DNA of 64,000 nucleotides from Elsinoe ampelina (GCA_010093995.1 ML992506.1:630551-694550); one strand, 5' to 3'; shown: positions 21,620-51,581, counted from the stretch's first letter. Numbers and translations: made by a program. The notes: generated by a model from the letters alone, not told the origin.

Positions 21620-24193
21620 CTAGTAGACCGAGTGCGTCCGCTCCGTCGGTCGCGTTACGCCTCTCAACTTGGCTTGCTCATATAGAGCGTCGGCGTAGGT
21701 CCGGCCTTCATCCCTGCTCTCTGGCACCGCGGTGGCGATGACGCGAGGAGCGAGGTTCTTCATCTCAACCGTCGTGCTATCCTTGACGGTCTGGACGACA
21801 ACAGTATCGGTCGTGGCAAGGATGCCACCCCAGAGCTGCTTGTTGTTGACGGCTGGCGGGGCGATAGATGGATCATACTGCGAGTCGCCTTCGACCTCGA
21901 CGAGACCGCGCTCCGAACTGCTGTCCTCCTTGACGATGCTCTCCTCGTCGCCCTTGCTGCCTCGTGACATCTTGCGCATGAAGCCGCGCTTAGATGACTT
22001 GGGCATGGCGGCCTTCTCATCGGCCTCTATCTGCGATGCCTTGGTAAGGATCGGGCCGAATTCAGTATGAACCTGGGATCGGAACTTGGTCCGCTCGGAG
22101 CACCCAGGGAAGAATGCGGTGCGGACGCGGAAGAAGTCAAGGGGAACGAAAGTGAGACGCTCAGGTTGGTTGACCATACCCTGGTGGATGTCGAGGAGCT
22201 TGGTCAAACCGAAAACCATGGCGGGACCGGAGACAGAAGATTGACCATACTGGGAGACGACGGGCTTGGAATTGAAAATCAGGTCGTTAAACCATTCCTC
22301 GGAGATTTGATGGGCGAGAGATGACATGGAGTTGATCAAGAGAAGGATGAAGCCGCGAACTTCGGGCTGGACATGCTGCTCACGAGAACGCTTCTGCTTG
22401 AGGTCGTTGACCATTTTGCCAGCAGTCCAGCCGTCGTACTGCTTCAGGAAGTTGATCTGAGCAGCGTTGAGATGCTGAGGGGTGAGCTGCATGTCAGGAA
22501 GCTGAGACTGGTTCGCCTTGGAGACGAGAACATCAAAGTGCTTGCTGAGACGACCGAGAGCGGCGAAGCAGGTGATGTAGGTACCTTGCTTGACGACAGC
22601 AGGAGTGTTGATCTCGGCCGAGTATTCTTGTAGGGACTTGATGTGACTGGCGACGAACTGGATGGGAATCTGCATAGTCCTAGCCATCATGGCCTCGACA
22701 CGAGCAGGAGGTGCGAACCGGTAACCGGCAGCGACGAAGCGATCAGCGTCATCCTTGGTCAGAACCTTTGTGAAGAACAGAACTTGACCCTTTTCGAGGA
22801 CAGAGGACGAAGCAATGCTATTGACGTCAGACCTCGACATCTTCTTGGCCTCGGCAGGGGTTGGCATGACACCCGTGCCGGTGACACGGTCGAAGAGAGA
22901 GCCAAGTTGCTCGAGCTTGATATGCATGCGGTCGGCGAGATCGGCGGACGCTACGCAGAAACCTTCGCGGAATAGCAGGGTCTGATCGTTGTAGCTCTCC
23001 TCGTCGAAGGAGCTACCAGTGGAGGCTGAAGTCTGAGGTCGGCTGTTCTGTCGGCTATAGGGGTCGAGACGCTTGAGATGACTCCTCATTCTTGGAATGA
23101 GGTCGGAGACAGAGTCCCAGTCGTTGGACACTTTCCAGAGCCAGTGGAATACAGGGTGGGCGGTGTTGAACTCATCGTCGAAGCGCTGAAGGTTGAAGCG
23201 CTTTGCGATCTTTTGCGCTGGCAAGACACCCTCGTTGGTGACCAGGACGTTGCCATCCTCGTCGAAGTATGCACAAGCCAGGTTGACCTGTTGAGCTTTG
23301 TCGGCGAGCTGCTTGTGGCGCATGCTGGTGAGAAAGATGATGGCAAGACAGATGAAGGCAGCCAGAGCGCACTGTTTATAAGGTTAGTCGAATCCTTTGT
23401 ATCTCTTTCCTCATCAAACTCACCAGAGCTCCTGCAACAATGACGGCCGTGTTACGGTTGAGGTTCGAGGGAGCAATCGTCTTGAGCTGGTAGGTGCATC
23501 CAACGGATGCGGTGTAGTGCATGCCGCACACAGCGACAGCGAGGATAAGAGCGCAAGCCAGACGCTTCCAGAATACGTTGATCCACTTCTCCTTGAAGTA
23601 GAAGAATAGGTTCAGAGCGATAATGCAGTCACCGATTGCGATAATGCATGACGCGATGATAAAGCGAGGCGGGTATATCAAGGTGTAGTTGTATGTTCCC
23701 AGGTTACCGCAGTAGTGCATACCGACAATGGAAAGACCGGCAAAGACACCAGTCAAAACATCGAGGAATCGGCGGAGGATAACATTCTTGACTCTTAGCT
23801 CGGCAATGTAGAAGGCGACTGTCAGACCGATGACGGGGAGAACGCAGGAAAGGACAGTCCAGCCAGGGCTGTAGGTCATCTGCAGCATATCACTGCCATC
23901 ACCGAGAATGACGGATCGATTGCCGATGAAATGCATACACCAGATGGCGATGAGACCCATGGAAATTGCGCAGAGGAGGAGTTGTAATCTGGCTTGCGGT
24001 TAGTCACTGTCAGTGCCTTCCTGGTCTGTTTGACTGACCTTGACATCCAGTTCTTTCCCAACCGCTTCCTGTGAAGCAGCTCAACTGTGAGAACACTACC
24101 AATCAAACTGGCGAAGAACGAGCCAACCACAATGCCTGGTTCAAAGTGCCATGGTATAATCTCGCCGACAACGTACGGCGATGTGGCGTCCAT
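21620..24193 (-). CDS. MHYT-domain membrane signalling protein with long cytoplasmic C-terminus
   Basis: Hydrophobic N-terminal region with IWCMHFIG, VGMHYCG and CGMHYTA repeats. Introns 24038-23989 and 23423-23372 link it to the 567-aa C-terminal ORF (LACAYFDEDGNVLVTNEGVLP). Confidence 0.9.
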
Positions 24194-42930: not shown

Positions 42931-44930
42931 CGGCAACGACGTCAGACGGCTGACATTTCCAGTTGGGCAATCGTGTGGTCTCTCGTGTAGTGCTCACTTA
43001 GTAATCGGATCGATAGGTGTATTGTGTCGTTGCCGGGAGTGAAGGACGTTGGAGGATGACGGTCGTGTGTTCGGCTTTGCAACGGCACCAAATTTGCAGA
43101 GATGCAATTCACAGCAATGCGCAGGCGGCCTTTGATAGGATGCTCCTGCCCGGTTGCTTGCCCTGCCTGACCTGCCTGTCCAAGGAGAGTTTTGAACGGA
43201 GCTTTGGCCGGCAGCAGCTCCCAACTTGGGCACTAATAAGCACATGTCACATCGCCCGCGTATTTGACTCGGCTCAACTTCAACTTCATCTCATGTCTCC
43301 ATGTCTTCCATCCCCGTATCATGTGTAGTGAGTATCCGTTTTCTTAGCCATTTGCATGTCAAGTTGTGCGCTTGCAAGCATGAAAACCCAGCGCTGGTCG
43401 ATCAAGATGCAAAGTTTTCGTCCCGCCCTCCCTTCGAGCTTATTCCCCCCTAAAAGAGTGAGCCGACTGGCCACACCAACCACCATCGGGTCAGCCGTAG
43501 AGGCACTGGAAGAGGCGCGCATAGCAATGGTCGAGTCTTACATCGATATGAAATGCACGAATCGCAATGGTGGGAACTCAAAACGCGGCTTTGTGGCATG
43601 TCGCCTGTCCTGCTATTGGGAGATTGGAGTGATCTGATTGGGGAGATTACTCGGTGATAGAGTGCCTCCAGACAGATATGTAGGAGTTCAGAGATGTCGC
43701 CAACGACAGACATCATGCCCTTGACTGTGCGACACATGGCAAAGGAAGATTAGGTCTTGCCCTCCAGCACAGCACAGACGACAAGCCATGCGTGCAGAGA
43801 TGTCATTTGAGAACTTCTCTGAGTCTCATCGAACATGAGAGGGCAATGCAACGGGGAACAGCAAGTGAATATGTATGTGGATAGTGCTCGTGGGTTGAGG
43901 AATATGAAGCTGAATCGTTCGCAGCCTTGTCGAAGCCACCGAGCGAAACCTGGACTCAGGGCACGACGCGTCTCATTCGGATTTGGTCGCGGATAACAGC
44001 TCAGCAGGGTCGTCACTGTCGTTACGAATAGCATGAACATAGATTCATGATCAGTAGTACAACAACATCCAGGCTTGCCGTCCTCGTCGTCGCGGTCGGT
44101 GTGGTGCCTTTCTGGGAGCTTCTTTCCAGATCACGCTTGTGCGATCCCGCGCTTAGCCAATTTCGACCTCGACCTTGACCTCGACCAGCATGTCGCACAA
44201 CACAAATGAATTCTGTCGCATCAATCACTTTGTCTTTTTCATCTTCTAGAAAGATCGGGGGCAGTGCTGAGTGCGTCAGTGCCACCTCACTCTCAAAAAA
44301 AGAAGGTAGGTTGAAGCTAATGCCTGGGCCAGGACCCTCAGCGATGAAATCCACACCGACCACCATTACGCAGAACTCGAATAGCACGTCGACGAGGACG
44401 CCAATCCGACTGATATTCCCACCATCTGGTGATGCGTCGTCTACTGATGAGCATTCTCAATCTCTCCAAACGATTCGCCATGTTTCGAAACTTTACACAA
44501 ACAGTTTCCTTTCGCTCAGATCAAGCTCGCCTCGTCGCCTACAAGCTTTCCCGTCCTTTTGCTTTGGGCAACAGTCACAGTCGCAAACCATGCCAGTACC
44601 TACCACAACTGCATGATACACTTTTCCGAATCATGATATGTTTCTTCTTTTCTCGTGATGCGAGTATTGCTTCTGCGCTGTCGCTTTGCTATAAGTGTCG
44701 CCCGTTTCCTGTCTTCCCTCATTCTCCTTACAAGACCCATCTCCTTTCCAGACATACAAGCATATCATTTATCCCTTGGTATTGCTCACAGTCTATCACT
44801 CAGATTACTTCACAGTTCTCTTCAAGCACTCCTCTTTCATATACCCACCCCCCTTGCTTAGCAAGTATCATCCACAGTTTCCAGTCATACAAGACTATCC
44901 ATCTCATCAGTCATTCAAGCATTCAAGGCA

Positions 44931-46139
44931 ATGGCTTTGTATAGCAAAATGGCAGCCAACAACTCCCATGGCTCTTCATCAGACGACTGGCGGGAGCGAA
45001 GGCCGACACCACCGTTGGTCAGCTCATGGTGTGAGAAGCAGCGGAGAATGGACGGGCCCTGGCGTCGCATGGGCATGAGCGAATCACCCGGCAACCCGGC
45101 TAGCTCACTGGCCACTCCTCCCCCGACCCCCTCACCTAATCCTCCGCCTGAGCCATCGCCAGCTCCTTCCTCTACCCTCTCCTCCTCTCCTCCCCCCACC
45201 ACCTCATCATCCTCCTCTCCCGACCCCTCGCCAACCCCGTCGGCTACCCAGTCGGATAACCCCCCTCCAACCTCTCACCCCGCCAACCCCGCCGACTCTC
45301 AGATCGGCCCCGGGTCCGACAATCCCCCTCCGACAACTCGTGGCACATCCCCACCACGATCGCGATCCTCACCACTGGAGGAAGCGCCTCTGGTAGGACA
45401 AATCATTCACCTACCAGCATTGCAAGAGATCGACCCAAGATCTCTTATCCACAAGTTCAATGCCAAAAATTGGCTCGGACCAAAGCCAGGTGATCATTAT
45501 CTGGTAGTACTCGAGGTCCACGACCAGTACATCGTTGCGGCACAATGCACCGCCTTCTCCGACTATGGATGGGCTCAAAGGTGCAAATCCCAAAAATGGG
45601 CCAGCCGCTACATCCCCCTCGGCCACGACCTCCACTGGACCGCTTCAACCGCCCAAGCTCTCCGCGTCGACCTCGAGCAAGGCAGCATGTCCAAAGAGAC
45701 ATTCATCAACATCGAGACGCCTCTGGTAGTTGAATGGCGCGTCTGTCAGCTCGTGGGCCCCGCGGCAAAGCTCCCCCGTCCTCGCCTGACGCAATACTCA
45801 TGGATGAAGCTGCACGACCTCATGCTTCACTACCAGCCCCCTCCTCCCCGTCCCCCTCCTCGCTACGGCTTCCGCAATTCACCGCCCCCGAGTCGACAAT
45901 ACGACAATATGGGGATGCGCAACTGGCTGTGGACTCAGACTCCCGGTTGGTTCAAGAGGCTCGTCCACGCGAGACCCTACCATGAGCCTTGTGACAATTG
46001 CCGCGAGCAACGCAAGGATCCAGAGTGCGGTCCGCATGTAGCCTGCAATTGTCCTTTCCAGTGGGCGTTTTGGGTCACGCCTGAGAATGGGTACCTCCCG
46101 AGCAGGTGGTACCTCGATCAGCAGCAGACTTTGGATTGA
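44931..46139 (+). CDS. Hypothetical protein: Pro/Ser-rich N-terminus, putative PemK/MazF-like beta-barrel domain, Cys-rich C-terminus
   Basis: 402-aa intronless ORF. Globular segment GQIIHLP...DHYLVVLE...IVAAQCTAF...RYIPL...LRVD...MSKETFINIE...V...RLT..SW.KL (about 45396-45834). C-terminal HEPCDNC..CGPHVACNC. The fold call is pattern-based only. Confidence 0.65.
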   Translation: MALYSKMAANNSHGSSSDDWRERRPTPPLVSSWCEKQRRMDGPWRRMGMSESPGNPASSLATPPPTPSPNPPPEPSPAPSSTLSSSPPPTTSSSSSPDPSPTPSATQSDNPPPTSHPANPADSQIGPGSDNPPPTTRGTSPPRSRSSPLEEAPLVGQIIHLPALQEIDPRSLIHKFNAKNWLGPKPGDHYLVVLEVHDQYIVAAQCTAFSDYGWAQRCKSQKWASRYIPLGHDLHWTASTAQALRVDLEQGSMSKETFINIETPLVVEWRVCQLVGPAAKLPRPRLTQYSWMKLHDLMLHYQPPPPRPPPRYGFRNSPPPSRQYDNMGMRNWLWTQTPGWFKRLVHARPYHEPCDNCREQRKDPECGPHVACNCPFQWAFWVTPENGYLPSRWYLDQQQTLD

Positions 46140-46230
46140 TGGATTTGTTGTTGTTTTCTGTATTCCGCATGGTGTTTTTGGAGGTTTGTATTGCCATTTG
46201 TAGGAGTTCTTGTTGGTATTTGTTGGATTT

Positions 46231-47289
46231 CTGGTAGTTTGTTGCTCAAATGTACATCATGATTCTTCCTAACATCCATCTTGGAATCTCATTCCTTGTC
46301 ATCTCGTGCTACATGTGCTTCGCCATTCACTACCAGCTTTTGATGGTCTCTGGTAGTTTTTGCTCAAATGTACATCAGTCCTACTCACATCGATCTTGCA
46401 AGCTCATTTCCTGCCATTCTATATCGTACGTGTTTCGCCATGTCCTACCAGCTCTTGATGGTGTCTGGTAGTTCTGAGCTTGTTCTGTTTCGCCAGGACT
46501 GCCTCAACTTCGAAGGCACTTCGGATCCTATTGCACAATCTCGACTGTGGCCGGCATTACAACTACCAGCGCTTTCCTGCCATTCTGGTAGTGTTGGCTT
46601 AAATGCACATCGCGATCCTTGCTACGTCAATCATGCAACCTTATTCCCTGTCATCTCATACTGCAATTGTTCCGCCAATTACTACCAGCTATATCTAATT
46701 TCTGGTAGTTACCGATCTATTTCGCGTCGCCACTATTGCCACCACTTCGAAGACACCTTGAGGGCACCTGATCCTGTGGTACAATCTCGACTGTGGCTGG
46801 CGTTGCTACTACCAGCTTTCCTCTCATCCTGGTAGTTTTTTGCGCAGAGATACTTCACGATCCTCATAACCCCTGATGACATCCTCCCTCTCAATGAAAT
46901 ATGGTCTGCCTGTCTCTGACCCGTTCCTACCAGGTCTTACTGGCTTCTGGTAGTTTCAAATACATCCTGCGTCGTCGCCACCACGTCGATCTTCACAGCA
47001 GCTGGAAATGTAATTCAGTCCTACTTTTTGCTGGCCTGATACCTCCCAGCAGTCTCTCGTAGTATTCGTACGATGCACATTACGGCAGCGCTCTTCTACG
47101 TACGCCTGTTTACGTGACATGATTTCTGACATACTCGACCTTAGGTACCCACCGGCTGTGCCCAGCTTCTGGCAGTATTTGCTCGAACATACCCCACTCA
47201 CCTCTTTGATTTATAGACGTCGTCGTGTGATCTTGACCTGAATGCATACGATACAATACTACCAGCACACGGTGATCGTCTCTGGCGAT
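46231..47289. repeat. Non-coding array of about 10 units (period ~109-127 bp), each with the palindrome (A)CTACCAG-N13(13-16)-CTGGTAGT
   Basis: Right-arm CTGGTAGT at 46231, 46350, 46465, 46585, 46702, 46829 and 46947; degenerate copies at about 47056, 47169 and 47282. Left arms at 46329, 46445, 46562, 46681, 46808, 46927 and 47258. Confidence 0.9.
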
Positions 47290-47843
47290 ACCTCGACGAC
47301 GGGTATTGCCTCGTACCTTACGAGGCTTTGATCCTACGAGATAGACCTGCGACGATGTTGTTCCTGGCAGAAGCACCTCCCATTCCAGCCCCCCTTACGC
47401 CGAAGTTCAGGCACGACAAATTCTTCCCCATCAATCGCAAGTCTTCAAGCCATCACCAGCTGACGTCCCACGACCCTGCAAACTCGCCGGTATCCTCTCA
47501 GCCCTTCCACCGAGCCTCTGAGCACCATCTACAGCCTCCAGGTTATTCCGTCCACGAGAGGAGTTGAAGTTGTCGACGTCCCACGCCCCGTCCCTCTCTC
47601 CCCGACACTCAAACCCGCATGCGACCAGTCACCTGCCGACCTTGCGTGCTTCTGAGAACCTTGTGTCACGACTCATGCGTGTCCTCGTCCACGGGGTTGA
47701 CCGAGTCTTGTAGGCTGTTGGACTTGAAATTTCCAGGCCGGGAATGTCCGTGGGGAAGTTATGAAGTCTGATGGGTAAGAGCATTTCGACTCGCACGGTA
47801 GGTGACATCGGTGATAGATGAGCTCGTGAAGTTACTGTGGAGT

Positions 47844-49475
47844 TCAGCTGGAGGGTTTGAGTCGCTTACTCCGCCGTTGTGGTCCAGCTAAGTCGTCTTC
47901 AGCGCGCTTGGTGGGCGGTTTCGTCTTGGACGGCGGTTTGGCCTTTGTCGCAACAGGCTTGGTCACTTTGGCTGGGATCTGGCTCTTCGACTTTGCTGCT
48001 GCTGTGGGCTTCTCCTTCGGGTCTCCGGGGTCGTATTCGTCTTTCGCGAGTGACTCATGCTCGGTCTGCTTGCTTTGCTCATCGGCATCCTCTTCCCCTC
48101 GGACCTGCTGCTCGCTCTTCGACGCTGCCTGCTCACCACCAATACCTTCTCCTTTCGTCTTGCCCAGAACGTAGGCAACACACTCGATATCTCTTGCCGC
48201 CACTCCGAGTCTCTGCCTGATCTCGGCGACTCTCCCAATAAGCAACTCGTACTCTTTCACAGTGTACCCGATCTTCCTATCCCAGCCTGTTCCTCCCTTC
48301 TCGTCATCCCAAGTCACCCATCGGAACAACTCATCGCTGAAGAACAGCAGCTCATCGGGAAAGACTGTCGAGAGCAGTAGTGAAGCCGTTGCAGGTCCGA
48401 TGCCGGAGAGGGAGGTGAGCTGCTTCAAGGCAGCGATGGCTGTGGCGGCGGGGATGGGTGGATGGGACGGTAAGAGGGCAAAGGCCTCGGCGGTGGTGGC
48501 GGGAATGGCGTTGTTGGAACTAGCGAGTGAGAGTAGGCGCGGCCGAAATGTTCCGTGAGATCTAGAGAAATGCTTATTAGCACAATCGCTCAGCAATAGA
48601 TCAGGGACTGGGGTGCGACGGCAATTAAAGGGCAAATATCGGGTAAGCTGTGGATCCTCGAGGCACCCGAGGGTATTGTCCGGGACTGGGAACAGCAGAG
48701 CATGACGATTCATGGTAATGCCCCATCCATAATAAATGGATGTCTTGAGGTGATATGTCATCCGAGCATAGGGCAGTTCCATCGATACGTCTCGAGCAGA
48801 TCCAGCTGCTTGTGAAAGACATTGAGCGTTTAGACGGACCAAACGACCACAGCGCGATCTCTACACCCAGAGCACCGATAAATCCGATCCTCTAGCAGTT
48901 CAACTTGATCTGGATGAGTGCGATTCAGGCCCAAGGGGACTAGCAGTCGATCACGCTGATTCTGATCGGCGGCGCGCATGCTCTGGATGATCTTTGCCTC
49001 CAAATGGGAACCAGTGGGATAAGAAGGGGCGCCGAATTATCTCTGCTAAACCCTCGCCGTGGACTCATAACACGTGGACTGTGTCATATGCCGCTAGACC
49101 GAGATCGCCAGAGAAACGGCTGCAGAGGTTGTTGTATCGTGCCGATCATGTCGTGTTTGAATTGGTTGATGTATGGGTAGGGACAGATGAACAGAGTCGT
49201 ACGTTCTTCGAGGTGGACAACAAAGGATATTTGCTCCTTGACAGGTGAAACGTGCAAAATACTTACAGCTTCCATTTGACCAACGTCACTACCTCATCTT
49301 TGGTCAGATGTACCCCTTCCTTGCTGTGTCGCCGCTTGTCTGTGGCTTTCGGGATATCAATCAAACGTTTTTGGTCGAGATCTTTGAGTTTGTCGGGGAT
49401 GACGGCAGGGTAATGCTTGAGTATTCTGTCAAAGTCAGACTTGGCGATAGTCTTCCAGTGATGGATTTCGTCCAT
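47844..49475 (-). CDS. Conserved hypothetical protein with helix-hairpin-helix motif (Amun-like / DNA-glycosylase-like)
   Basis: HLTKDEVVTLVKWKL|SHGTFRPRLLSL across the 705-nt intron 49266-48562, LTSLSGIGPATASLLLS (HhH), FFSDE, IGYTVKEY, and a basic C-terminal NLS-like RRSKRLK. Confidence 0.8.
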
Positions 49476-49961: not shown

Positions 49962-51581
49962 TTAGTAGGAGCCCCAGTATCCGCTGGGCTCGGCCTCATA
50001 GCCGGTGGGGACAGGGAAGTAAGCGGAGGAGGTGGCACCAGTACCGATGGGAGCAACGGCGGAGCTGGTGGTCGGGCGCGGCCTGTGAACGGTAATGAAA
50101 CCAGTGCTCAAGCAGGATGTGGAGCTCGCCTCGCCCGATGCAGTGGCGGTCGGGTAGTATGGGGCCTCGCTGGACTGGATTGGGCCTTCAGTCGGCTCAG
50201 CAGTCGGCTCGGAGTAAGCGCCAGGAGTGACGGTCTGAGATACGTTAGTCTCGAGAAGGAAGAATGATGATTCAGTATTACTCACCACAGTGGCTGTGGC
50301 AGTGACAGTGACGGTGACGGGAGGAGCGCACTCGCCCTCATCGCCCTCGCCATCCGAACCAACAGGCACATCGCCGTAGCCGCCAGTCGGGACAGGCTCG
50401 ACGGTGACGGTGCTGAAGATGGTGGAGGTGGACAATAAAGTGGTGGTGCGGGTAGAATCGACATCAGAAGGAACTGGGCTACCGTCGCTGCCGACTGGGA
50501 CATCACTAGTAGGAGCGGGCTTGGGCACAGTAAGAGTCTGGTAGAGGGTGGAGGTGCGGGTGATGGCAGTGGTGATTGTGGTTGGCTGAGCGCTGCTAGA
50601 GCCATAACCTCCACCGTAGCTGGGGTTGAGAGTGTAGGTGAGGGTGACCGCACTGGTGATGGTGGTAATCGGGCTGCTGACCGTGGTGTAGCCACTTGGG
50701 ACGGTTCCATTGCCGCCTGTTGGGTAAGGAGCGTAGGTAGGAGCAGTTGGCACCGCATCGGTGGTGGTTCCAGCTCCGGTTCCAGTTGGGACCGGGTTGG
50801 CAGTCGACGAGGCAGATGGGTATGGGACTGGCTCGCTGGGGTATGAGCTTGCGCCGGTTGGGCCAGTGACAAGAGGGATGGAGGAAGAGGCAGAGCTCGA
50901 TGTGCTTGGTGCATCAGCGGTGGATGGGCTAGTTGCTGACGGGTAGGGGACAAGGCCGGACGAGGTGGAGTATCCAGTTGGTCCAGTCACGAGAGGCACA
51001 GAGTATGTGCTGCTGCTCGAGGTGCTAGGAGCATCCGCAGTGGATGGGCTGGAGCTGGGGTAGGGAACAAGACCGGATGAGGTCGAGCCGCCTGTCGGGC
51101 CGGTCACGAGAGGAACGGAGTAGGTGCTCGATGTGCTTGGAGCATTGGCGGTCGTGGATGGGGCTGGGTAGGATGAGAGACCAGCAGAGGAGCTCGAGCT
51201 GCTGGTTGATGGAGCATCAGCGGTAGAGGAAGTTGCCGGGTAGCTCGATAGGCCAACAGAAGACGAGCTCGTCGAGGGAGCGTCAGCGGTCGTGGAGGGC
51301 GTCGTGGTTGGAGCCGTGGTGCTCGGGGTGGTAGCTGGGTAGCTGGAGAGGGCAGGGGAGGTAGTAGTCGTGGTAGGAGCTGCGGCCGTGGTGCTTGACG
51401 TCGTAGATGGCAATGGCTCGTACGTGAAACCACCAGTCGATGTAGGGACAGAATCGGCGGTGGAGCTGCTAGGCAGCGGGGCGTAGGCGAAGGAGCCATA
51501 GCCTTGACGCTTCTGCTGGGGCACGCGAGCGTGAGCGGCCACCGCGAGGGCGGCGACGACGAGGGTGCTGCTGAGATGCAT
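49962..51581 (-). CDS. Secreted Ser/Thr/Pro-rich repetitive (cell-wall/adhesin-like) glycoprotein
   Basis: Signal peptide MHLSSTLVVAALAVAAHA, Kex2-like KR site, tandem ADAPSTSSS / VPLVTGPTG / YP repeats, and an in-frame 51-nt intron 50285-50235 (GTGAGT...ACTAAC...CAG). Confidence 0.85.
   Translation of the reverse strand: MHLSSTLVVAALAVAAHARVPQQKRQGYGSFAYAPLPSSSTADSVPTSTGGFTYEPLPSTTSSTTAAAPTTTTTSPALSSYPATTPSTTAPTTTPSTTADAPSTSSSSVGLSSYPATSSTADAPSTSSSSSSAGLSSYPAPSTTANAPSTSSTYSVPLVTGPTGGSTSSGLVPYPSSSPSTADAPSTSSSSTYSVPLVTGPTGYSTSSGLVPYPSATSPSTADAPSTSSSASSSIPLVTGPTGASSYPSEPVPYPSASSTANPVPTGTGAGTTTDAVPTAPTYAPYPTGGNGTVPSGYTTVSSPITTITSAVTLTYTLNPSYGGGYGSSSAQPTTITTAITRTSTLYQTLTVPKPAPTSDVPVGSDGSPVPSDVDSTRTTTLLSTSTIFSTVTVEPVPTGGYGDVPVGSDGEGDEGECAPPVTVTVTATATVVSNTESSFFLLETNVSQTVTPGAYSEPTAEPTEGPIQSSEAPYYPTATASGEASSTSCLSTGFITVHRPRPTTSSAVAPIGTGATSSAYFPVPTGYEAEPSGYWGSY

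Follow-up and report, generated by a model that had tools for sequence, protein, structure and literature searches.

An array of invariant palindromic arms next to a gene with a predicted MazF/CptN-like fold in the fungus Elsinoe ampelina

We describe here a tandem array of short palindromes in a 64,000-nucleotide stretch of the Elsinoe ampelina genome (GCA_010093995.1 ML992506.1:630551-694550; positions are counted from its first letter), to which we refer as the window. The palindrome arms, CTACCAG and CTGGTAG, are identical in all intact copies, and the same seven-nucleotide word (7-mer) occurs five times in the neighbouring open reading frame (ORF) at 44931-46139. This ORF, which had been raised in the initial annotation of the array, turned out to be the key lead, as the domain predicted in its product has a MazF/CptN toxin fold. 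Together, the 7-mers in the ORF and the fold of its product favour an RNA-level reading of the array and supply a candidate protein partner for it. The explanation that we put forward, tentatively, is that the array forms stem-closed units in the transcript of the gene, which would be bound or cut by the gene product in a way that resembles type III toxin–antitoxin systems. The assignment of the sequence to a fungus, made initially without knowledge of its origin, agrees with the presence of split eukaryotic housekeeping genes and a Fungal_trans domain in the window (Pfam scan of the 39 largest open frames), and with homologues of the ORF from Elsinoe, Sphaceloma and Myriangium.

A scan of the window with the pattern CTACCAG-N10-18-CTGGTAG returned six matches, at 46330, 46445, 46563, 46682, 46809 and 46927, whereas none of 100 dinucleotide-preserving shuffles reached six (mean 0.00). 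The steps from hairpin to hairpin are 115, 118, 119, 127 and 118 bp, and the loop is 13 nt long in five of the six palindromes and 15 nt in one. Regularly spaced palindromes about 118 bp apart, as initially described, are thus present, and their six loops match exactly those listed before. The bare 7-mer, counted on both strands, occurs 28 times in the window against 5.23 ± 2.14 expected (largest shuffle, 12). Nineteen of these copies lie inside 45390-47265 and nine outside it, the expectation for the whole window being 5.2. The array occupies the convergent intergenic gap between 46139 and 47844, and consists of about ten units of 115-127 bp each, of two types (A and B), in a total of about 1.1 kb. 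Its parts are as follows.

46140-46230, plus strand: T/G-rich gap of 91 nt from the stop codon to the first arm; Tandem Repeats Finder reports a 10-bp period (TTGTTGGTAT) at 46210-46244
46231-46953, plus strand: intact part of the array, with the first arm of unit B6 at its end; units CTGGTAG...CTACCAG of 102-114 nt, linkers of 13 or 15 nt
46231-46336, plus strand: unit A0
46350-46451, plus strand: unit A1
46465-46569, plus strand: unit B2
46585-46688, plus strand: unit A3
46702-46815, plus strand: unit B4
46829-46933, plus strand: unit A5
46330-46356, no strand assigned: hairpin 1, CTACCAG-CTTTTGATGGTCT-CTGGTAG; RNA fold of 46328-46358, -9.8 kcal/mol
46445-46471, no strand assigned: hairpin 2, loop CTCTTGATGGTGT; -11.2 kcal/mol
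46563-46591, no strand assigned: hairpin 3, 15-nt loop CGCTTTCCTGCCATT; -12.2 kcal/mol
46682-46708, no strand assigned: hairpin 4, loop CTATATCTAATTT; -10.1 kcal/mol
46809-46835, no strand assigned: hairpin 5, loop CTTTCCTCTCATC; -9.2 kcal/mol
46927-46953, no strand assigned: hairpin 6, loop GTCTTACTGGCTT; -11.7 kcal/mol
46954-47370, plus strand: decayed distal part (B6, A7, A8 and a further remnant), arms with at least one mismatch; the 233-bp-period match extends to 47058

The array opens with an isolated CTGGTAG at 46231, 92 bp past the stop codon of the ORF. This start is the one given initially, but the end then placed at 47289 has to be moved, as remnants with one mismatch (47043/47056, 47169, 47259, 47334 and 47364) carry the array on to about 47370. 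The distal arms read CTCCCAG/CTCGTAG at 47043/47056, CTGGCAG at 47169 and CTACGAG/CTGGCAG at 47334/47364, and at 47259 an exact CTACCAG is followed by CTGGCGA. Tandem Repeats Finder detects just the first 2.1 copies (46230-46473, period 115, 80% matches). No reading frame runs through the whole array, as had been stated: an ATG-initiated ORF of 155 aa (46368-46835) spans four units only, and the hairpins within it sit in different frames. Between the gene and the array, at 46140-46262, the frame of the ORF stays open for 40 codons past its TGA and is very hydrophobic (WICCCFLYSAWCFWRFVLPFVGVLVGICWISGSLLLKCTS); this is probably a side effect of the T/G-rich composition, but would add a membrane-like tail under stop-codon readthrough.

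The units, in order A0, A1, B2, A3, B4, A5, B6, A7 and A8, form a higher-order repeat, in which 46329-46825 matches 46562-47058 with 65.5% identity over 519 columns, at a period of 233 bp. A0 and A1, at one end of the array, are the most similar pair (78% identity). By Smith-Waterman comparison, the interiors of A0, A1 and A3 are clearly related (z-scores 14-20), as are those of B2 and B4 (z 20). No similarity is detectable between A and B interiors in the plain or the purine/pyrimidine alphabet, save for some 20 nt that A1 and B6 have in common (z 5.3), and B6 may, judging by this stretch, be a hybrid unit. The spacers, initially described as related to each other, fall into two related types. 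The interior similarity of A5 is nearly gone (z 0.5-3.2), with both its arms intact, and the later units are almost unrecognisable; with decayed remnants at the distal end, conservation drops with distance from the upstream gene. No further copy of either unit type was found elsewhere in the window.

Short palindromes at regular intervals, separated by longer and variable sequence and decayed at the distal end, recall clustered regularly interspaced short palindromic repeats (CRISPR). In contrast to CRISPR, however, only the arms of the 'repeat' are constant here and the loop varies, the 'spacers' are two related families in a 233-bp tandem period, and the genome is eukaryotic. In agreement with the initial statement that the array is not a CRISPR, no Cas family was found among the 39 largest open frames of the window.

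The arms differ sharply from the rest of the array in their conservation. All 14 arm positions are identical across the six copies, whereas the pairwise identity of the ungapped flanks and loop ends is 0.34-0.52. In a MAFFT alignment of units A0, A1, A3 and A5, the 14 arm columns are without exception invariant, as are only 30 of the 105 other columns (29%), and the longest invariant run beyond the arms is two columns. If arm and other columns were alike, the chance of this would be f^14 = 2.4e-8. Moreover, the A and B types combine unrelated interiors with identical arms. The differences between the aligned copies are mostly C<->T (14, 11, 14 and 13, vs 3, 7, 5 and 7 A<->G), and because the arms themselves hold C and T, the most changeable bases, low mutability is not the cause of their invariance. 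The arm sequence, we conclude from these alignments, evolves under purifying selection, and the initial proposal of selection on the palindrome, rather than neutral decay of a minisatellite, is upheld. As the arms show no covariation, their conservation cannot separate recognition as RNA from recognition as DNA.

The same word recurs inside the upstream gene, to which the following features belong.

44931-46139, plus strand: ORF of 402 aa; disordered Pro/Ser-rich residues 1-145, folded part at about 150-345, low-confidence C-terminus
45378-45965, plus strand: predicted domain of the MazF/Kid/CcdB/ToxN-superfamily fold, aa 150-345
45390-45417, plus strand: palindrome of the opposite order, CTGGTAG-N14-CTACCAG, encoding L-V-G...L-P of the GxxVxLP strand
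45501-45527, plus strand: second palindrome, CTGGTAG-N13-CGACCAG, with one mismatch, encoding the H(P/Y)LVVLEV strand, 111 nt past the first
45723-45836, plus strand: unit-like coding segment of 114 nt, CTCTGGTAGTT ... TTCACTACCAGC, encoding the conserved PLVVEW...PRL..SW

The ORF, 1209 nt long, has three copies of CTGGTAG and two of CTACCAG, where 0.15-0.17 copies are expected (Poisson P for at least five exact 7-mers, 5e-7 to 1e-6). Each of the three CTGGTAG copies specifies Leu-Val at a conserved strand, as CTG-GTA, a codon pair found at three of the six Leu-Val dipeptides of the ORF, whereas 12 background open frames use it at only 1 of their 44 (P 2e-4). The codons CTA (Leu) and GTA (Val) are seldom used in the window, and four of the five GTA codons of the ORF lie within or directly abut the 7-mer motifs. 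The two CTACCAG copies are in different reading frames, which points to a motif at the nucleotide level. As RNA, 45390-45417 forms an 8-bp stem (-11.3 kcal/mol, z -4.6), and the hairpin at 45501-45527 is weak (-6.0 kcal/mol, z about 0). The pattern CTGGTAG-N80-110-CTACCAG has seven matches in the window, namely the six array units and the segment 45723-45836, which is of unit-like length and whose ends are identical to those of the array units over 11-12 nt. As this segment aligns with homologues of the ORF, it is neither an intron nor an insertion. Along the plus strand from 45390 to 47049, each CTGGTAG is followed by CTACCAG or by a one-mismatch copy of it. On these counts, we take it that the word is selected for within the gene at the nucleotide level, and that the tie between gene and array is real.

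The CTGGTAG copies of the ORF (45390, 45501 and 45723) are spaced by 111 and 222 nt (37 and 74 codons), near the array period, and three of the four resulting segments of 37-38 aa start with LV(G/V) and end with HY, RY or HYQ. No similarity was detected among these segments, or between them and the array interiors, by Smith-Waterman comparison or in the purine/pyrimidine alphabet, and a hidden Markov model (HMM) of the protein family searched against six frames of 46140-47600 gave a best E of 0.73, the bit scores being negative. That the array descends from coding sequence was considered, and is unsupported without any interior similarity.

An exhaustive HMMER search with the ORF product found 11 homologue clusters at E<=1e-3, 9 of them at <=1e-10, and the named ones, all hypothetical proteins, come from Elsinoe batatas, E. 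fawcettii, Sphaceloma murrayae and Myriangium duriaei. Accessions of family members are KAG8631458.1, KAF4551683.1, PNS14028.1 and KAF2153031.1. On this sequence evidence the family is a real one and, so far as its members are known, restricted to Myriangiales (Dothideomycetes). A word-indexed protein search with the 402-aa ORF found no homologue, the family profile against the word-indexed database recovered two proteins, both already known, and no paralogue was found in the window. In the alignments, the core (aa 150-345) carries the motifs GxxVxLP, HPLVVLEV..CAQCTSFS, WA.RY.P.GH..H and Y.NVE.PL.VEW. The predicted model of this core has a predicted local distance difference test (pLDDT) score of 89.1 and a predicted template modelling score (pTM) of 0.86. 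In the full-length model, pLDDT is below 60 for residues 1-140 and 80-97 for residues 150-310, and residues 1-145 and 346-402 are disordered. The best match of the core model in a Foldseek search of the PDB was E. coli MazF (E 8.4e-4), followed by CptN (1.0e-3), and all the matches listed were MazF-superfamily toxins. An independent structure alignment of the core model, all against 48,161 chains, gave the following structure scores.

CptN: 10.0 (140 residues aligned; chain length 155)
S. aureus MazF: 9.7
Kid: 8.5
CcdB: 7.2
AbiQ: 6.9
ToxN: 6.5 and 6.2
next unrelated fold: 4.6

The predicted domain thus has both the SH3-like barrel fold of the CcdB/MazF superfamily and the fold of the ToxN/CptN/AbiQ endoribonucleases. 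Most solved members of the MazF/ToxN superfamily are endoribonuclease toxins. The type III toxins align over model residues 4-190 and the MazF chains end at about residue 157, so that the model has extra C-terminal helices with counterparts only in type III toxins, a suggestive difference that lies within the tie margin of Z. Compared with MazEF and Kid-Kis (PF02452), the domain is longer (about 190 aa, its C-terminal helices lying beyond the end of the MazF chains), the gene belongs to a eukaryote and is monocistronic, and the PemK profile PF02452 found no match at E<=10 among the 13 family members scanned. In a Pfam scan of the neighbouring ORFs, with no search beyond that, no gene for a protein antitoxin was recognised. 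A PDB sequence search with the family profile returned one chance match (E 1.3). PemK/MazF toxins are characterised by a catalytic Arg/Thr pair. Here, His189, Thr207, His235 and Glu268 are invariant in the homologue alignment and His232 is nearly so, and these could be catalytic residues; they may be equivalent to the MazF residues, the alignment behind this equivalence being non-significant.

The nearest clusters in the ESM Atlas, taken as a lead only, are Ascomycota clusters of DUF6590 (PF20233; score 0.94, 203/256 shared features, 12/30 matches), and a PemK/MazF cluster, a lead of the same kind, stands at rank 16 (0.87). In contrast to this likeness, the PF20233 HMM gave no match to the family at E<=10. 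The DUF6590 domain may have a MazF-like fold too. Additionally, Trp-Arg motifs recur in the disordered N-termini: DDWRERR and GPWRRMG in the ORF (44931-45375), and NWRDRS, NWRSRG, NWRRRS and NWRAR in homologues (P0001, P0003, P0005, P0006 and P0010, the last also at the C-terminus). They could serve for localisation or RNA binding, or as a self-inhibitory peptide, and the region that contains them did not dock confidently on the domain in the full-length model (pLDDT <60).

At the level of RNA, the six palindromes form locally stable hairpins (-9.2 to -12.2 kcal/mol). The array can also be read in an alternative register, as units of 102-114 nt, each closed by its own pair of arms and separated from the next by a pyrimidine-rich linker of 13 nt, and this register leaves no orphan arm at 46231. 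Accordingly, the hairpins of arm, 13-nt loop and arm on which the initial annotation was centred are real, but units of CTGGTAG, about 90 nt and CTACCAG are an equally valid reading. The closing stem is the only robust element of the A and B consensus folds, which contain 2-3 compensatory pairs among three sequences. Folding 801 nt of either strand gave z of about -2.7, and was non-discriminating. The composition of the plus strand of the array is T 0.33, A 0.20, C 0.29 and G 0.18 (62% pyrimidine), and this pyrimidine bias and the C<->T excess fit, as an inference, sense-strand transcription in the direction of the gene.

The RNA-level explanation that we favour would work as follows. The array would be transcribed with the gene, as its 3' untranslated region (UTR) or as a read-through tail, and each unit would fold on itself as a module, its two arms forming the closing stem; in an alternative fold, adjacent arms would pair as 7-8-bp hairpins across the 13-nt linkers. 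The gene product would bind these elements, or cut in the pyrimidine-rich linkers, and the array would titrate the protein or silence it, with feedback on the mRNA of the gene, in much the way that a type III toxin processes ToxI or CptI repeat RNA and is inhibited by it; the motif copies in the coding region would bring the mRNA under the same control. The kept array sequence consists only of the 7-8-nt arms CUGGUAG(U) and (A)CUACCAG. A more specific form of this explanation, which we regard as rather unlikely to hold in all its parts, is that the protein is a fungal endoribonuclease of the MazF/CptN fold whose own mRNA has a 3' tail of about ten stem-closed units, that it recognises these units through the 7-nt word, severs them from one another at the linkers and is restrained by the units, and that the word in the coding region serves autoregulation.

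The model for such a mechanism is provided by type III systems (ToxIN, CptIN, TenpIN and AbiQ), in which, according to PMC3401426 and PMC4627078, a toxin with this fold cuts a tandem-repeat RNA into units, which in turn inhibit it. These papers give repeat units of 36 nt for ToxI and 45 nt for CptI, and the systems that they describe are from bacteria, from one archaeon and from one phage; in PMC3401426 the arrays sit upstream of the toxin, behind a terminator. The word stem 'eukaryot' has no occurrence in the latter source, the Blower 2012 survey. The likeness to type III systems lies in the toxin fold of the predicted fungal domain. In contrast to them, the array here lies downstream of the gene, has two types of unit that are about three times longer and diverged, keeps only the 7-8-nt inverted arms, with no pseudoknot detected, and belongs to a fungal host, and the protein has a disordered N-terminus of 150 aa and no sequence match to any type III toxin model. 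Nor did Tandem Repeats Finder detect an upstream array at 44000-44930, where there are only 6- and 8-bp microrepeats. The gene and its array are not a member of the type III class.

Several points weigh against the RNA-level explanation. A 3' UTR of 1.2 kb would be long for a fungus. Both the array and its pairing with the gene are known from a single locus; the array lies 92 bp downstream of the stop codon and not upstream of the gene; and the units, at 115-127 nt, are only 65-78% identical or less. No conserved interior structure or pseudoknot was found, the unit folds having z of -0.1 to -3.3, and none of 4227 Rfam covariance models matched the window at gathering score; at E<=10, the region 44000-49000 gave one chance-level match, off the array (adapt33_2, 22.5 bits, where the gathering score is 60). 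The predicted domain, a putative nuclease, is assigned by fold, without a match to a sequence family: scans of 11 members with Pfam, PADLOC and NCBIfam returned no family at E<=10, with no PemK or ToxN match, and hhalign against three bacterial PemK proteins was non-significant (probability 0.6%, E 0.089). Furthermore, a nuclease specific for single strands would recognise only one of the two arms, and an invariant, non-covarying palindrome fits sequence-specific recognition of DNA equally well.

In the alternative that this last point suggests, the elements would act as DNA: CTACCAG-N13-CTGGTAG, with half-site centres 20 bp apart, would be bound by a dimeric sequence-specific protein, and at least six such sites between convergent genes would form a regulatory, barrier or recombination element. 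We consider this unlikely. Arms that are invariant without covariation are what sequence-specific recognition predicts, the loop keeps to 13 nt in five of the six copies, and the array fills the convergent gap at 46139-47844. However, sites of this kind leave unexplained the five rare-codon motifs of the ORF, two of which are everted and would be read differently by a dimer, as well as the strand-asymmetric composition and the C<->T bias; there is also no known candidate for the binding protein, and the 7-mer is not enriched elsewhere (nine copies outside 45390-47265).

The array could also be a functionless higher-order minisatellite, possibly seeded from 45723-45836, with arms conserved for mutational or mechanical reasons, which we find improbable. 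Head-to-tail units with an A-B higher-order period, identities of 65-78% and a degenerate edge are typical of minisatellite architecture, the most similar pair, A0 and A1, stands at one end, and the segment 45723-45836 has the unit length and the shared ends of 11-12 nt. In contrast to minisatellites, conservation here is sharply uneven (14/14 arm columns against 29% of the others, P 2.4e-8), even though the arms include C and T, the bases that change most between copies, and the motif is common to the array and a neighbouring gene. Moreover, A5 has lost its interior and retained both arms, the ORF segments have no interior similarity to the units, and the family HMM found nothing in six frames of the array.

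Still more doubtful is an array for termination or 3'-end processing common to the two convergent genes, in which transcription from both directions would meet CUGGUAGU words and U-rich linkers. The location between convergent ORFs suits such an array, a palindrome presents one word on both strands, and GUAG and UCUU-like words presumably resemble the Nrd1 and Nab3 motifs of yeast. However, the full 7-9 nt and their inverted pairing are kept, which goes beyond the need of short termination words, the motif copies in the coding region are left unexplained, and the composition is strand-asymmetric.

The least probable of the alternatives is a tandem cluster of non-autonomous mobile elements, similar to miniature inverted-repeat transposable elements (MITEs) or introners, with subfamilies A and B and 8-bp terminal inverted repeats (TIRs) CTGGTAGT...ACTACCAG: six units of 102-114 bp do carry perfect 7-8-bp TIRs, CTGGTAG(T)...(A)CTACCAG, and unrelated interiors like MITE subfamilies that share a transposase, and their GT...AG ends recall introns, but no target-site duplication or direct repeat flanks the arms, no dispersed copy exists in the remaining 62 kb of the window, the A/B alternation at a 233-bp period indicates tandem duplication and not independent insertion, and the unit-like segment of the ORF is conserved coding sequence. 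Likewise, the units do not form a chain of introners or spliceosomal introns, as their ends are GTAGTT...CCAG and the in-gene copy at 45723-45836 codes for conserved residues. GTAGTT departs from the fungal 5' splice consensus. In a paper on introner-like elements (PMC4457414), neither 'inverted repeat' nor 'Elsinoe' occurs.

No homologous array was found when metagenomes, prokaryote genomes and viral contigs were scanned with the pattern CTACCAG-N11-17-CTGGTAGT-N75-105-CTACCAG, which speaks further against mobile elements. The scan returned 31 metagenome loci, 16 prokaryote-genome loci and 1 viral locus. A single hairpin was present in 37 of these 48 loci, consistent with chance, and 2-3 hairpins in the other 11 (among them L002, L005, L009, L018, L019, L022, L028, L029, L043 and L044). 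The six multi-hairpin loci that were inspected proved to be unrelated short-period repeats (with 31- and 56-bp periods, among others). In blastn comparisons with the array and HMM comparisons with the protein family, none of 51 loci (the 48 and three bacterial PemK loci) gave a match. Rich in motifs are L022, with a 56-bp period at 1-1140 and ACTACCAG-GCTTGG-CTGGTAGT palindromes in both orientations, and L019 (1300-2140) and L028 (1-380), with a 31-bp period (CCCACTGGTAGTACCCAGG); these three metagenome contigs have dense repeats built on the same words, without similarity to the fungal array.

Other features of the window are the following.

47844-48782, minus strand: convergent ORF of 312 aa, whose 3' end faces the decayed end of the array; weak helix-hairpin-helix/OGG-like matches (E 1e-3 to 0.14), below cut-offs
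49962-51581, minus strand: ORF of 539 aa, extremely Ser/Thr/Pro-rich, with internal repeats (SSYPA..STADAPSTSSS), a signal-peptide-like start and no Pfam match; from its sequence, the product looks like a secreted mucin- or adhesin-like wall protein
23379-23999, minus strand: two MHYT repeats (PF03707, an N-terminal repeat of bacterial signalling proteins according to Pfam) in a fungal gene, E 2.4e-20

The results listed by full-text literature searches include no paper on MazF-like proteins of fungi, on type III systems of eukaryotes or on DUF6590. If the RNA-level explanation is true, the gene and its array would represent a control circuit of a protein and a repeat RNA in a eukaryote. RNA-antitoxin systems would then reach beyond prokaryotes and phages, with a gene order inverted to suit monocistronic eukaryotic transcripts. 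An orphan gene family of Myriangiales would acquire a function, as perhaps would DUF6590 through the Atlas lead, and the protein might be an RNase that recognises a 7-nt word. The toxin–antitoxin reading aside, a palindrome has been perfectly kept through an otherwise complete turnover of sequence, and a word has been imposed on the codons of a neighbouring gene. Whatever the outcome for that reading, both are clean and testable cases of selection at the nucleotide level.

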